DNA of 64,000 nucleotides from an uncultured Bacilli bacterium (GTDB taxonomy: Bacteria > Bacillota_I > Bacilli_A > RF39 > UBA660). Numbering within the stretch: the stretch's first letter is position 1; every line of letters starts with the position of its first letter. Below the pieces are notes generated by a model that did not search any database, was not told the DNA's origin, and saw nothing but the letters and a program-made list of their open reading frames with translations. The stretch covers positions 741,444-805,443 of the forward strand of contig OZ006994.1 in assembly GCA_963931305.1 (NCBI GenBank), read 5' to 3'. Both the position numbers and the translations under genes were made by a program. Shown here piece after piece: positions 9,178 to 36,921 of the stretch.

Positions 9178-9251
9178 TGGTGCCGCTTGTAAGAATCGAA
9201 CTTACCATTGAGCCTTACCATGGCTCCGTTATACCACTTAACTAAAGCGGC
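9178..9251 (-). tRNA. tRNA-Thr (anticodon GGU)
   Basis: I folded it by hand as a cloverleaf. The acceptor stem is GCCGCTT/AAGCGGC, the D stem GTTA/TAAC and the anticodon stem GAGCC/GGCTC. The anticodon loop is ATGGTAA, the T arm is GTAAG-TTCGATT-CTTAC, and CCA is encoded. Confidence 0.9.
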
Positions 9252-11870: not shown

Positions 11871-11947
11871 GTCCTCGTAGCTCAGTAGGATAGAGCAATT
11901 GCCTCCTAAGCAATAGGTCGTTGGTTCGATTCCAATCGAGGACGCCA
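11871..11947 (+). tRNA. tRNA-Arg (anticodon CCU)
   Basis: I folded it by hand. The acceptor stem is GTCCTCG/CGAGGAC, the anticodon stem ATTGC/GCAAT and the anticodon loop CTCCTAA. The T arm is GTTGG-TTCGATT-CCAAT, and CCA is encoded. Confidence 0.9.
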
Positions 11948-18609: not shown

Positions 18610-18647
18610 ACAAAAAAAGATGTTGATTTGTTTCCCTCAACATCTTT
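18610..18647 (-). terminator. Intrinsic terminator, probably the original terminator of the 20158-21624 gene and now separated from it by the IS element
   Basis: An 11-bp stem (AAAGATGTTGA / TCAACATCTTT) is followed by a T-run on the minus strand. Confidence 0.7.
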
Positions 18648-18661
18648 TGTTTGTTCTTTAT

Positions 18662-18670
18662 CCGATTATA
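18662..18670. repeat. Left copy of the 9-bp target-site duplication CCGATTATA
   Basis: An identical 9-mer directly abuts both inverted repeats of the IS (the other copy is at 20162-20170). Confidence 0.8.
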
Positions 18671-18805
18671 CTTATAACCGGACAGTTTTTGAAATGATAT
18701 TAAAATGACCCAGATGTTATCCTGAGTCATTTCACTCTTCAACTTGATATAAACAACCTTTTTTGTTATTCTTATTATAATCACAAAATAGAATAGAGGT
18801 TGTTT

Positions 18806-19975
18806 ATGTTTAAAGTATATAATACTCAAAATGATATTGCAAGTAGTTTGCAAAATTTTTTATTAAATGTTGATCCGAATATTAGAAAAACTCAACTTAA
18901 TATTATCCCTTTTATTTCTTTAGGTATGATTTTATCTGAATCTTCTGTCGCTAGTGATATCGCCAAATCTTTGAAAGATGAATTCTCTCTCGTTCAACAT
19001 GATTCTGTAATTCGTAGAATTAAAAGATTATTTAAAAATAAATTCTTTGATCCTTATCATTTTTATGACTTAGTGATTCGCTATGTTATTTCTAACTATA
19101 AACCGAAACATAATGACCGTCGTATTCATATTTCTTTTGATCATATGTTTTCTCACGACAATTATACTGTCTTTATGATCTCTATGAGAATCGGTAAACA
19201 AGGTATTCCTTTATGGTTTCGTTGTTTTAATAATAAATATCATTCCGATGCTTTCAACGAATCTCTCTTAAAAGAAGGTATCTCTTATGTCTCTTCCTTA
19301 TTTGATCCTTCTTTCCATCTTATTTTTCTTGCCGATCGTTGGTTTAATTCCACTTCTCTCTTACAGCATATTGATTCTTTAGGGCATATTTATTGTATTA
19401 GATTAAAAAGAAATATAAAAATTTTAGTTTATGACAAAAAGGAACAACACAAAGTCTGGAAATTTTTAAATGATATCATTCCTTATAAATATCATTCCAC
19501 TTCTTTTCATGACATCATCCTTACTGATTATCTATTTAAAACCAATATTGTCATCAGTAAATCTGATGGAGTATCTGATCCTTGGATCATTGTTACAAAT
19601 GGTTCTACTAAAAGAGCTATCAAAGATTATGGTTACCGTTTTGGTTCTATCGAATCTCTTTTTAAAAATCAAAAATCTAATTGTTTTTACATTGAATCTG
19701 TTATTAAAGCTGATTTAGACTATTTTACTTCTATGTATACTCTTGTTTGTTTTTCTACTCTCTTTTTAACCATATTAGGAGCTGATTATTCTAAAAACAA
19801 ATGTTGTTACAAAAATATTAAAATTACTACTCATAAATATTTTATTAAAAATGGTACCAGAGTTAAGAAAAGAGTTATGTCTTTATTTAATACTGGTCTT
19901 ACTTTATTTCATCTTGCCTTTCAATCCTCCCGTTATATTAGAATTCCTTTTTCTTTTACTCTTTATGATATTTAA
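18806..19975 (+). CDS. DDE transposase (DDE_Tnp_1 / IS4-like)
   Basis: The ATG at 18806 follows an AGAGG SD. Candidate DDE residues lie in ISFDHM, LADRWF and GYRFGSIESLFKNQK (a YREK-like block). Confidence 0.75.
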   Translation: MFKVYNTQNDIASSLQNFLLNVDPNIRKTQLNIIPFISLGMILSESSVASDIAKSLKDEFSLVQHDSVIRRIKRLFKNKFFDPYHFYDLVIRYVISNYKPKHNDRRIHISFDHMFSHDNYTVFMISMRIGKQGIPLWFRCFNNKYHSDAFNESLLKEGISYVSSLFDPSFHLIFLADRWFNSTSLLQHIDSLGHIYCIRLKRNIKILVYDKKEQHKVWKFLNDIIPYKYHSTSFHDIILTDYLFKTNIVISKSDGVSDPWIIVTNGSTKRAIKDYGYRFGSIESLFKNQKSNCFYIESVIKADLDYFTSMYTLVCFSTLFLTILGADYSKNKCCYKNIKITTHKYFIKNGTRVKKRVMSLFNTGLTLFHLAFQSSRYIRIPFSFTLYDI

Positions 19976-20031
19976 ACTATTTTAAAATTCATAATGGTTT
20001 AAATCTTTTTTGTCGTGTTCATATTTCCAAA

Positions 20032-20070
20032 AAAAGTACAGTTTTTTCCTTTTTACTGTACTTTTTTTCT
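20032..20070 (+). terminator. Intrinsic terminator inside the IS, downstream of the transposase
   Basis: The stem AAAAGTACAG / CTGTACTTTT is followed by a T-run. Confidence 0.6.
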
Positions 20071-20157
20071 TTCATTTCCCAATCATACATCACTGGTCGT
20101 ATCACAATGTATATTTTTTTCTTCTTTTTCAATATAATTCTAAAAACTGTCCGTTAT

Positions 20158-21624
20158 TCAGCCGATTATAAACGGATTCCCTTTCGTTCCATCTCCTCCT
20201 GTTATTTCGATATCTGATTTCAAATAGAGAACTGGACGCACCCCATTAAGGCCGCCAGTGTGCGCACGGTCGCCACCGAACCCGCCAACGCCCTGATCGA
20301 AAACCGCATACCAGACAAGGTACGAGCGGGCACCAGACTCCGCAGAAAACTCATTCATTGTCCAATAACTTATTTCTTCATTAAAAGTTGTTAAATATGA
20401 CCCACATGTTTCTCTTGGTGTATTTCCTCTTATTGCATTATATTCATCTGTTGCTGATGTACAGGCAATATTCGTACTTGCTCTCAGTAAATCACTGACA
20501 TTCACAAGTCCTACATTTCCTGTCCACTGGTACATCTTTTCTCCTGCGATATTCTTTTGGATACTATCATTTCCACTTACATCTAAGAACTGTACACTTC
20601 CGATATTAAATGCATGGCTTTGTACTTGTGTTTTTGCTGTTCCATCTAATGTTGGATAGTATGTATTATTTAGATATTCTTTGATACTGGAATCCTCTGT
20701 TACTGTTCCACTATACTTTCCATCTGGTGTTTGAAATGTTCCACTTACTGCTGCGAAGACTCCACAGCCTCTGCTTGGACTTGTACAATATGTATTATTT
20801 TCTGTTAAACGATGATTTGATACATCGTATGCCATAGGCGTATAATTAGCATTCTGTGGTAATATCTCATCTCTGATGATTTTATATGTTCCATCTGTTT
20901 CTTTAGCGATGATTCTCCATAATTCATTATTGAATTGAATGTAATTGTTTGGTTCGCTTCCACGATAGATATATCGTCCTGCTTCATATTGGTCTTCATA
21001 GAGTCCATCTCCAGAAGTAACTACTTCTACTCCTTGTCCTCCTATATCTACTCCATCACTTGGAAGTGGTCCTACTGGTACTCCATCATCACTTTGTTCA
21101 TATGTTAATGTGATTTCTATTTCTTTTTGCATGTTTGTTTCACTGAAATCTACATTCTCATCCCAATACACTTTTACTTGAAATGTTTTATCTTCTCCTG
21201 CAAGCAGTGGATCTCCTACCCTGATGTTTTCAACACTCACTTTAATTGCTTTTGGATCTTTATTATTGTTTTCACTTACTCCATCAATACCAGATAATAC
21301 TGCATCCAAGTCTCCTTGGTTTTCTACAACGACATCATATGTCGCACTTGCTCCTGGTTGTGTTAGATTGACATCTAATGTTAATGTTGTAAGATCTGTG
21401 ATTTCTTTTCTTGTTGTAGTCGCATTGTTCATTTCTTTTTCTTCTGCACTCGTAAACAATATTTTCCAATTAGATGTAATCTGGGCTGTTCCATTGATAT
21501 CTAATTGTTGACTTAATACTGCATATCCAATTCCTATCATTAGAAACATAGCAATACATAGACTACCAACTAGAAAATATTTCTTATGTTCTGAATTCAT
21601 TCTCTTTCTTTCTACTTTTCTCAT
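20158..21624 (-). CDS. Exported/anchored surface protein with a C-terminal DUF1566/lectin-like module that carries a compositionally aberrant segment
   Basis: AAGGAG SD precedes the ATG at 21624. It has an N-terminal basic region plus TM/signal segment. The central motif is GDGLYEDQYEAGRYIYRGSEPNNYIQFNNELWRII. The C-terminus reads YWTMNEF...VWYAVFDQGVGGFGGDRAHTGGLNGVRPVLYL. The present stop codon lies in the IS end. Confidence 0.6.
   Translation of the reverse strand: MRKVERKRMNSEHKKYFLVGSLCIAMFLMIGIGYAVLSQQLDINGTAQITSNWKILFTSAEEKEMNNATTTRKEITDLTTLTLDVNLTQPGASATYDVVVENQGDLDAVLSGIDGVSENNNKDPKAIKVSVENIRVGDPLLAGEDKTFQVKVYWDENVDFSETNMQKEIEITLTYEQSDDGVPVGPLPSDGVDIGGQGVEVVTSGDGLYEDQYEAGRYIYRGSEPNNYIQFNNELWRIIAKETDGTYKIIRDEILPQNANYTPMAYDVSNHRLTENNTYCTSPSRGCGVFAAVSGTFQTPDGKYSGTVTEDSSIKEYLNNTYYPTLDGTAKTQVQSHAFNIGSVQFLDVSGNDSIQKNIAGEKMYQWTGNVGLVNVSDLLRASTNIACTSATDEYNAIRGNTPRETCGSYLTTFNEEISYWTMNEFSAESGARSYLVWYAVFDQGVGGFGGDRAHTGGLNGVRPVLYLKSDIEITGGDGTKGNPFIIG
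20162..20170. repeat. Right copy of the 9-bp target-site duplication CCGATTATA
   Basis: See the feature at 18662-18670. This copy encodes the last residues (I-I-G) of the adjacent gene. Confidence 0.8.
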
Positions 21625-21728
21625 ATACTACTCCTTACCTTTCTTTCATCTTATCACAATTATTCGTTGATTTATATAGGTTTTCTAGGTGTTTTACACG
21701 ACATTTTTTTACTTTATTTGCTAAGTGC

Positions 21729-21763
21729 AAAAAAGTTGCTTCCACTACGAAAACAACTTTTTA
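21729..21763 (-). terminator. Intrinsic terminator inside the 5' leader of the surface-protein gene
   Basis: The minus-strand RNA reads GUUGUUUUC-GUAGU-GGAAGCAAC, a 9-bp stem that includes two G-U pairs, followed by UUUUUU. It lies about 105 nt upstream of the gene start. Confidence 0.6.
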
Positions 21764-21794
21764 AATCTTTTGAAATAAATTAAATCGTTAAAAT

Positions 21795-21929
21795 AGTATG
21801 AGAAATATAGGGTATGATTACTTAAATCCCCCCCCATGGTAGCGTTTGGTTAACACAAGCTTTATTTCTCATATCTATCACCTAGTCTCCTACTGTTTAC
21901 ATTTTATCACATTTTTTATAAATTTAAAA
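21795..21929 (-). promoter_or_regulatory. Conserved promoter plus leader element, copy A (the second copy is at 49125-49245)
   Basis: The -35 TTTTAA (21924-21929) and -10 TAAAAT (21901-21906) have 17-nt spacing. A conserved AGTAGGAGACTAGGTGA box follows, then a 16-codon sORF, a G8 tract, and an enclosing helix formed by 21863-21873 with 21797-21807. Confidence 0.55.
21822..21872 (-). CDS. Candidate leader sORF encoding MRNKACVNQTLPWGGI
   Basis: An AGGTGA SD lies 5 nt upstream of the ATG. The reading frame and the LPWGG C-terminus are shared with copy B despite synonymous differences (CTA/TTA). Confidence 0.4.
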   Translation of the reverse strand: MRNKACVNQTLPWGGI

Positions 21930-22076
21930 GGAATTTGATATTCCTTTACAGTTATATGAAAAAACACCTAGCATAAGCTAAGTGATCATCATTGAAATGG
22001 ACACTTAGTAAGCATCCCTCTTTCATTATATGATAATAATATATAATTGTAAATAAAAAGAATACGTTTTGTATTC

Positions 22077-22292
22077 TTATTTTTGATTTATTTTATCTTC
22101 ATAAGCCTCGTAAAATATTGCATCTGGCTTTTTGTGAAATATTGCCGAAATCTTTACTGCCATTTCATAAGTTAGTCTTCTTTTCCCATTTTCAATTTGA
22201 CAGTAAAATGGTTTACTGATTCCAAGTTTTTCTGCCATGACACGAGCTGTTAATTTCTTTTTCTTTCTTAATTCTTTTAATTTTAGGTACAT
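22077..22292 (-). CDS. XRE-family helix-turn-helix transcriptional regulator (about 71 aa)
   Basis: The likely start is the ATG at 22292. The classic HTH_3 pattern is LKELRKKKKLTARVMAEKLGISKPFYCQIENGKR. Confidence 0.8.
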   Translation of the reverse strand: MYLKLKELRKKKKLTARVMAEKLGISKPFYCQIENGKRRLTYEMAVKISAIFHKKPDAIFYEAYEDKINQK

Positions 22293-22427
22293 ACTACTTC
22301 TCTCCCTTACAAGCTCATTATAACATATTTCACACAAAAAGTCTACTATTAGTGTACTGTAATTGTATGCTAATTATGAGAAAATTATCTTGTAGTACTT
22401 GGAAAATTTTACCATTTGGAGGATGTT

Positions 22428-22673
22428 ATGATGACAAATATGGATATGGTGAGTCAATATGCAGTATTTAGTAACAATATTCGTACTTACCGTAAAGAAA
22501 AAGGGTTTACGCAAGAAGTACTAGCTGAGAAATCTGAATTATCTATTTCTTATATTAAGCAAATTGAATCATGTAAGGAATATAAAAATTTGACATTGAC
22601 GGCAATTTTAAAATTGTCAAAAGCTTTGGATGTTCCTGTGAATCAGTTATTTTACGAAAAAAAGGAGAATTAA
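22428..22673 (+). CDS. XRE-family helix-turn-helix transcriptional regulator (about 81 aa), divergent from the previous one
   Basis: A GGAGG SD precedes the ATG at 22428. The HTH_3 pattern is IRTYRKEKGFTQEVLAEKSELSISYIKQIE. Confidence 0.8.
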   Translation: MMTNMDMVSQYAVFSNNIRTYRKEKGFTQEVLAEKSELSISYIKQIESCKEYKNLTLTAILKLSKALDVPVNQLFYEKKEN

Positions 22674-36800: not shown

Positions 36801-36921
36801 AATTTCCCTCCTTACAATTCTAAGACTCGCCTAAAAGGTAACAATTGTTTTAAAACCTTGTTCGTGCGGTTGTAGCGACCAAAGGGGTACTACACAATAT
36901 AAAATTTTAACAGATAAATCC
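36801..36921 (-). promoter_or_regulatory. Probable structured L21-operon leader
   Basis: A 120-nt untranslated region upstream of rplU has G/C-rich paired segments (GUAGUACCCCUUUGGUCGCUACAACCGCACGAACAAGG). Its position matches the L21 leader known in Bacillota. I did not fold it rigorously. Confidence 0.4.

Follow-up and report, generated by a model that had tools for sequence, protein, structure and literature searches.

A GC-Rich Patch near the 3' Terminus of a Surface-Protein Gene Belongs to the Variable Repeat of a Remote Target of a Diversity-Generating Retroelement in an Uncultured Gut Bacilli Lineage

Results

A GC-Rich Patch in a Surface-Protein Gene

The subject of this report is a gene on the minus strand of a 64-kb stretch of contig OZ006994.1 (hereafter the window). 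The gene encodes a membrane-anchored surface protein of an uncultured, low-GC member of the Bacilli (former Tenericutes) from the chicken gut. The sequencing runs that contain the locus are chicken-gut metagenomes, and related public genomes are labeled uncultured Tenericutes, Mycoplasmatota, Acholeplasmataceae, or Bacilli. An earlier note on this DNA had singled out a patch of 107 nt near the 3' end of the gene (minus strand, positions 20340 to 20234) and had proposed that it is a variable region of a diversity-generating retroelement (DGR). In a DGR, a template RNA is copied by a reverse transcriptase with misincorporation opposite adenines, and the cDNA replaces the 3' end of a target gene. 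As judged by comparison with templates from related genomes, the patch is indeed part of the variable repeat (VR) of a DGR target gene, and the gene is one of several targets that lie far from the retroelement. The features of the locus are collected in Table 1.

Table 1. Features of the target gene, its variable repeat, the adjoining insertion sequence, and the template repeats (window positions unless a locus is named)
Feature	Position	Strand	Basis
DGR target gene, 488 aa; C-terminal domain carries the variable region	20158..21624	-	Open reading frame list, Pfam, AlphaFold2 model, >1200 homologs
Variable repeat (VR), type A, 126 nt homologous to the template repeat	20225..20350	-	Ungapped alignment to the L001 template
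Mutagenized stretch, first to last template-adenine substitution	20232..20333	-	Alignment to the L001 template
GC-rich 3' element of the VR, putative core of the initiation of mutagenic homing (IMH) site	20234..20244	-	Repeat/template comparison; IMH role by analogy with the Bordetella phage DGR
Upstream region common to paralogous target genes (82-92% identity), presumed promoter and 5' untranslated region	21625..22058	-	blastn of the window against L053, L002, L054, L058, and L001
IS4-family insertion sequence, 1491 bp	18671..20161	+	Inverted repeat, junction sequences, empty-site contigs
IS4-family DDE transposase open reading frame, 391 aa	18800..19975	+	NCBIfam, Pfam, tblastn to annotated transposases
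Target-site duplication CCGATTATA, 9 bp, left copy	18662..18670	.	Junction reading
Target-site duplication CCGATTATA, right copy, last codons of the target gene	20162..20170	.	Junction reading
Type-A template (non-coding copy used for the main comparison)	L001 11619-11744		
Type-B templates	L055 6894-7019, L059 8894-9019		

Re-reading the minus strand reproduced the sequence and composition given in the note exactly. The patch consists of 41 G, 28 C, 28 T, and 10 A, that is, 69 G+C out of 107 (64.5% G+C and 9.3% A), in a window whose overall content is 28.9% G+C. No other 107-mer of the window is as rich in G+C (z = 7.0; the runner-up reaches 51%), and plus-strand T, which corresponds to coding-strand A, is at its minimum in the patch among all 107-mers of the window. 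The compositional boundaries are abrupt. The patch peptide, ESGARSYLVWYAVFDQGVGGFGGDRAHTGGLNGVRP, is preceded by YWTMNEF and followed by VLYL, as had been stated, and Gly, Ala, and Arg are abundant in it. Codon choice switches within the gene, as had also been claimed. All nine Gly codons of the repeat are GGC, GGT, or GGG and none is GGA, whereas GGA accounts for 33 of the 39 Gly codons in the rest of the gene. Likewise, three of four Ala codons in the repeat are GCG, as against 16 of 23 that are GCA elsewhere, and the G+C content at third codon positions (GC3) is 0.57 in the repeat versus 0.20 outside it. Thus, the unusual composition of the patch is real and is not explained by its amino-acid content, because synonymous codon choice flips within it.

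The Patch Is Part of a Variable Repeat with the Signature of a DGR

We compared the patch with a non-coding repeat found next to a reverse transcriptase gene in a closely related genome (locus L001; the same form of the repeat is present in L010, L018, and L057, also from closely related genomes). The two sequences align without gaps over 126 nt, so that the repeat proper is somewhat wider than the 107 nt originally delimited, which lie within it. There are 27 mismatches, of which 25 fall at adenines of the template (hypergeometric P = 3e-15). The template has 37 adenines in all, and the 25 that became another base in the window were replaced by G (12 sites), C (seven), or T (six). L001's own VR behaves in the same way: it differs from the L001 template at 20 positions, every one of them a template adenine. 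By this comparison, the patch is the variable repeat of a DGR target gene, and the match to the template is a DGR signature.

The template also accounts for the composition of the patch. Read in the frame of the target, it encodes FSAESDDNSNNVWNAAFNQGVGEFGNNNANNDNNNGARP and contains 13 AAY codons, its adenines lying mostly at the first and second positions of such codons. The note had reasoned that an AAC-rich template would yield an A-poor variable region, and an AAC- and AAT-rich template is what the related genomes contain. The non-adenine scaffold of this template is already 48% G+C, and it is this scaffold together with the replacement of adenines that produces an A-poor island of 64% G+C.

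The family of proteins to which the target belongs displays the same signature at the protein level. Among 17 near-identical orthologs (P0001-P0036), we counted 10 sporadic substitutions over approximately 434 columns outside the repeat. Within the repeat 22 columns varied, with as many as 11 different residues in a single column, and every one of these columns corresponds to a template codon that contains adenine. The repeats of these orthologs conform to the pattern AESxDxSxxVWxAAFxQGVGxFGxxxAxxDxxxGARP. The GC-rich scaffold of the repeat is found in every paralog and ortholog from genomes of 29% G+C.

The VR lies at the 3' end of the target open reading frame, the stop codon being located 67 nt beyond it. 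At their 3' ends the VR and the template have in common GGGGCGCGTCCAG.TCTCTA and then split (TTTGAAATC versus ATAAAACTA); the 3' end of the template reads GGGGCGCGTCCAGATCTCTAATAAAAC.

The Retroelement Lies Elsewhere in the Genome

In L001, the target gene is followed, in order, by the 126-nt template, an open reading frame of 132 aa related to MutS_I, a bAvd open reading frame, and a reverse transcriptase of the RVT_1 family with the motifs IGNMTSQ and YMDD. In L001, L055, and L058-L071, the bAvd open reading frame (Pfam E 2.4e-8, below the curated cut-off) and the beginning of the reverse transcriptase gene overlap. The 132-aa open reading frame is by its sequence a MutS-like DGR accessory gene. 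It lies between the template and bAvd (L059 9278-9676; L001 12007-12405) and matches MutS domain I with an E value of 3e-4, just above the Pfam cut-off.

None of these components is present in the window, as the note had correctly remarked. Neither blastn nor a DGR-aware ungapped scan of the 64 kb found a template (the best non-self match had 17 non-adenine mismatches), and tblastn found no relatives of the reverse transcriptase, of bAvd, or of the MutS-like protein there. Exact-sequence look-ups, however, pointed to a cassette elsewhere in the genome. The window protein (P0241) occurs on ten contigs, the longest of 1,256,474 bp. A reverse transcriptase of 381 aa (P0255; RVT_1, IGNMTSQ, YMDD), 91% identical to that of L001, occurs on 19 contigs from the same samples, the longest of which is likewise 1,256,474 bp. 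The equal longest contig and the shared samples link P0255, a reverse transcriptase of the DGR clade whose cassette includes bAvd, to the genome that carries the window gene, to which it would thus belong. The P0255 cassette lies downstream of an mraZ-rsmH-penicillin-binding protein gene cluster and has its own target in cis (L058-L061).

The note had foreseen a remote or an orphaned target. Because the cassette is outside the window and, in one assembly, the reverse transcriptase is on a different contig from the window gene (whose own contig, 431 kb long, still runs for approximately 185 kb past the gene in the shorter direction), the window copy is, by this linkage, a remote target as Wu et al. 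(PMC5758913) use the term. It is also one of a set of at least six paralogous targets in the genome, since at least five further copies were found: P0048, P0077, P0096, P0243, and the cis target.

Two Template Alleles

Templates associated with these cassettes came in two forms, that of L001 (type A) and that of the P0255 cassette (type B). The two agree completely at the 5' end (18 nt) and at the 3' end (51 nt), and the 21 differences between them all fall between index 18 and index 74 of the repeat, so that type B encodes AARATGLAGLD where type A encodes AAFNQGVGEFG. Between cassettes, the DNA that flanks the template is 95-100% identical, whereas the center of the template is only 70% identical. 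The template is included in 12 P0255 loci, which come from seven samples, and in every one of them it was type B, with zero to two nucleotide differences. The cassette of a second reverse transcriptase, P0123, also has a type-B template. We had considered P0123 as the reverse transcriptase of the window genome on the basis of shared contigs but dropped it in favor of P0255, because the longest-contig value describes the representative of a protein cluster only. A third variant of the template, close to type B, was seen in L034, in L067, and in run X2.

The repeats of the target genes could be sorted in the same way. The window copy, P0048, P0096, and P0243 have repeats like type A, and P0077 and the cis target have type B. 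When the window VR was aligned to type B rather than type A, the number of mismatches rose to 40, of which 16 are at non-adenine positions and are clustered at index 35-74. Thus, the expectation that a template would be found whose mismatches are confined to adenines holds nearly without exception for type A and fails for the template that is linked to the genome's own reverse transcriptase. With 16 central non-adenine mismatches, the resident type-B template has evidently not rewritten the window VR over its full length. The repeat of P0077, which belongs to the same genome, gives a different picture: 16 of its 20 mismatches to type B are at adenines, which indicates that the resident DGR acts in trans.

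Run X1 contains the same locus, lacking the insertion sequence described below and 98.6% identical over the 362 flanking nucleotides compared. The only template form in this run was type A, at a depth of 14.3 as compared to 13.5 for the window-like locus. These observations suggest that both cassette alleles occur among the strains of one species.

The Window Repeat Is Nearly Invariant, and the Cis Repeat Varies

Across L005-L009, five loci drawn from four ENA assembly records, the window VR did not differ at any position. In Logan contigs, which drop rare variants, it was present with three or four differences in four further chicken-gut runs, two from each of two other studies (X1 and X25; X2 and X14), and contigs from X26 and X27, which cover just the 5' part of the VR, matched it exactly there. 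The differences between alleles were located only at positions 20261, 20262, 20267, and 20268, all of which are template-adenine sites and belong to two AAY codons: AAT had become CGT or ATT, and AAC had become CAC, TAC, or TCC. Approximately 20 other adenine-derived positions of the VR were unchanged between alleles from the three studies. By number and position, the allele differences are too few and too patchy for one classical, 3'-anchored homing event. A remote pair of paralogs, P0095 and P0096, had the same pattern, with four differences at the protein level, all within the repeat. Other members of the window protein's cluster, at 82-89% identity, were paralogs or orthologs belonging to other loci rather than variants of the window locus.

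In contrast, the cis repeat beside an identical reverse transcriptase varied both between samples and within one of them (ERZ21563600), almost only at adenine sites. Two cis repeats from that assembly (L062 and L063; 1569-1694) were alike in their 5' part except at one site and differed mainly at index 76-105, which is the pattern that 3'-anchored partial homing would leave. The hypervariability among strains that the DGR proposal called for is therefore borne out by the family of orthologs and by the cis repeat and is not borne out at the window locus itself.

A further peculiarity of the window VR is in its GC-rich 3' element, which reads GGGGTGCGTCC; the two templates, and every other paralog whose DNA was read, have GGGGCGCGTCC. 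The C-to-T change, at position 20240, converts GARP to GVRP in the protein. By analogy with the IMH of the Bordetella phage DGR, a substitution in this element may impair homing.

An Insertion Sequence at the Stop Codon

The target gene is interrupted at its very end, within its last codons, by an IS4-family insertion sequence (IS). The IS has imperfect terminal inverted repeats of approximately 27 nt (85%), and its transposase matches transpos_IS4_2 (NCBIfam, E 8e-19) and DDE_Tnp_1 (Pfam, E 3e-4), both below the curated cut-offs. The third base of the final Gly codon and the stop codon, TGA, now come from the IS, so that the target protein is unchanged. The original stop codon and a terminator hairpin (18612-18651) are found beyond the left target-site duplication and are now 1.5 kb away.

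Contigs from X1, X2, and X25 join position 18661 directly to 20162 and represent the empty site with the same repeat allele. As read from these junctions, the insertion is recent and is a strain polymorphism, and it can be ruled out as the cause of the stasis of the VR, since the IS-free orthologs carry the same allele. A second copy of the IS, 99.5% identical (L053 9478-10952), occupies exactly the corresponding position of P0077, with the same orientation, even though the two target genes are only about 85% identical. The coincidence could reflect either site-specific insertion or gene conversion.

The Target Protein

A search of a protein collection with the window protein returned more than 1200 relatives. 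We obtained two AlphaFold2 models, one from 45 sequences, with a mean predicted local distance difference test score (pLDDT) of 37.9, and a better one from 150 sequences, with a mean of 60.8. In the better model, aa 11-39 form an N-terminal helix, as a membrane anchor would. An immunoglobulin-like beta-sandwich at approximately aa 55-177 was the only confident domain across the two runs. The pLDDT in the C-terminal domain was mostly below 60 and fell below 50 across aa 411-461, where the variable residues lie.

The note had assigned the C terminus to a DUF1566 or C-type-lectin-like module. DUF1566 had no match in the window protein in Pfam at E <= 0.1. The one Pfam match was to DUF6273, which aligned to aa 310-470 at E 5.4e-4 and 20.3 bits, below its cut-off of 23.5, and which matched 14 of 45 family members at E <= 0.01 (the best at 1.3e-6). 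In gut phages, DUF6273 has been described as a C-type-lectin-like domain that DGRs target (PMC10743442). A C-type-lectin fold for the C-terminal domain is plausible. Foldseek against the PDB returned nothing at E <= 1e-3, the matches above that value being generic beta-sandwiches, and sequence and profile searches of the PDB with the target protein were empty.

Upstream of the gene, the shared region of approximately 430 nt contains two imperfect inverted repeats (21708-21784 and 21797-21873). Rfam had no match in or near the target gene.

Discussion

The results can be accounted for as follows. An AAC/AAT-rich template would be transcribed and copied by the DGR reverse transcriptase with the aid of bAvd and the MutS-like accessory protein, with misincorporation opposite adenines, and the mutagenized cDNA would replace the 3' end of the target gene. 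The window VR would have been written in this way by the type-A allele of the template, as found in sister genomes and in run X1. It would now be mismatched to the resident type-B template, carry a mutated 3' element, and stay nearly invariant across samples, and the cis copy beside the reverse transcriptase would still be undergoing rewriting. We consider it likely that the patch is the variable repeat of a remote DGR target, that it was written by a type-A template, and that it is now frozen and probably retired. The case for its being frozen comes from the type of the resident template, the point mutation in the 3' element, and the near-invariance of the repeat.

Several points weigh against this reading. 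The connection between the window genome and type B depends on the equality of the longest contigs in exact-protein look-ups and on the 12 of 12 loci with an identical reverse transcriptase, and a second cassette, with a type-A template, may exist elsewhere in the genome. The five assemblies in which the VR is identical may derive from one or a few related samples, and diversification at low frequency would escape the Logan contigs. The location of all three or four allele differences at template adenines hints at residual or past DGR activity at the locus. Moreover, partial homing anchored at the 3' end could be initiated by the resident template, as the last 51 nt of type A and type B are identical. 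Finally, GVRP is not peculiar to the window copy, as a diversified ortholog, P0036, also reads GVRP at the protein level.

The foremost alternative is that the window copy is an active remote target, whose VR is rewritten in trans by the resident DGR or by a second, undetected type-A cassette, the apparent stasis being due to sampling and to purifying selection that favors a single successful variant. We regard this as unlikely. In its favor, remote targets are documented for non-phage DGRs (PMC5758913), and P0077 indicates that the resident DGR does act in trans. The 3' parts of the two templates are the same, the GC-rich element of the window VR differs from theirs by one base, and the allele differences are all at template adenines within this shared 3' part. 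Against it stand the non-adenine mismatches at index 35-74, which exclude full-length homing from type B, and the approximately 20 adenine-derived positions that are the same across three studies and that a single 3'-anchored homing event would re-draw. Furthermore, the cis repeat varies in the very same data.

Two other explanations dispense with the retroelement, and we give each of them a negligible probability. Recombination import of a short segment from a high-GC homolog, which the note had named as an alternative that would undo its proposal, or horizontal transfer of a GC-rich patch would suit the abrupt boundaries of the patch, but it is rejected by the presence of the GC-rich scaffold in every relative from 29%-GC genomes, by the non-coding template copy beside a reverse transcriptase, and by the concentration of template differences at adenines. 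A Gly/Ala-rich loop selected for its function, with no special mutation, fits the abundance of Gly, Ala, and Arg and is contradicted by the switch in synonymous codons and by the existence of a template repeat.

Returning to the reading that we favor, in which the window repeat is a frozen product of a type-A template, we tentatively suggest a more general scheme, one to which we attach low confidence. Cassette alleles with a swapped template center may circulate within one species-level group, so that the type of a repeat would record its last writer. A swap of the cassette, together with mutation of the 3' element, might then strand remote repeats as frozen binding sites. Further change in such repeats would be limited to short patches, arising rarely, where the template had adenines, a mode of DGR-linked change different from classical 3'-anchored homing.

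Chromosomal DGRs that serve several remote targets are already known, and the present system is a new member of that group. Non-phage DGRs include a Treponema element with seven non-adjacent targets and DGRs of Lineage 4 that have targets at distances above 100 kb (Wu et al. 2018, PMC5758913). As in those multi-target systems, a single cassette (template, accessory genes, and reverse transcriptase) serves a target in cis and paralogs scattered over the chromosome, and the repeat is at the 3' end of its targets, the template is rich in AAC and AAT, and the differences are adenine specific. bAvd is also in common, as is a MutS_I-like open reading frame between the template and bAvd. The present system differs in its host, an uncultured low-GC gut lineage of the Bacilli (former Tenericutes), in having two template alleles within a species-level group and hence repeats of the "wrong" type, and in that the remote repeat studied here is static and has a mutated GC-rich 3' element. 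A literature search that combined DGRs with these taxa had no paper on DGRs of this lineage in the ten results that it listed.

With the DGR of Bordetella phage BPP-1 (mtd, avd, template repeat, brt), the system shares the logic of mutagenic retrohoming and the divergence of the 3' ends of repeat and template after a shared GC-rich element, similar to IMH and IMH*. It differs from BPP-1 in having no phage context, several targets, an additional MutS-like accessory gene, and a mutated GC-rich element. A further difference is that no GC-rich hairpin was seen just downstream of the window VR, as inspected by eye only. The DUF6273 and C-type-lectin-like targets of gut phages (tentaclins, Mtd-like; PMC10743442) are proteins of the phage tail, whereas the target in the window is a chromosomally encoded, membrane-anchored cellular protein. 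Its Pfam score is below the gathering threshold, and its lectin fold is putative.

The less ordinary aspects of the system, for which the evidence is indirect, are the polymorphism of the template allele, the stasis of the VR together with its mutated 3' element, the patchy differences at adenine sites, and the presence of an IS at the stop codon of two paralogs. If the window copy has indeed been retired, template mismatch and stasis would together illustrate, in nature, a way in which remote DGR targets may be taken out of service. This also bears on the number of "orphan" repeats, as surveys that demand adenine-only mismatches to a resident template would miss repeats of this kind. More broadly, a DGR variable region was recognizable from its composition alone (a GC-rich island, depletion of adenine, and a switch in codon use) with the retroelement outside the window and, in one assembly, on another contig. 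The results also document, in a small-genome, uncultured lineage of gut Bacilli, a chromosomal DGR whose paralogous surface-protein targets number at least six.

Finally, we note several features of the surroundings of the target genes. The window has ordinary chromosomal features, including genes for tRNA-Thr(GGT) (9178-9251) and tRNA-Arg(CCT) (11871-11947) and a ribosomal protein L21 leader (36813-36881), which show it to be neither phage nor plasmid DNA. A short way upstream of the target gene are two divergently oriented genes for small HTH_3 (Cro/C1-type) regulators (22077-22337, minus strand, and 22416-22673, plus strand), which are kept in all assemblies of the locus. Elsewhere in the genome, P0048 is located directly upstream of genes for TadE, a ParA/CbiA-type ATPase, T2SSE, and T2SSF, as in a tad-like pilus (L002 11673-16762), and P0096 is upstream of a prepilin-type (N_methyl) gene (L054 9565-9948). 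This arrangement hints that the target family is tied to a surface appendage. Approximately 5 kb downstream of P0096 is a gene for a protein of more than 1169 aa with DUF285 and DUF6273 (L054 14578-17470), which may be a lectin-like surface protein.

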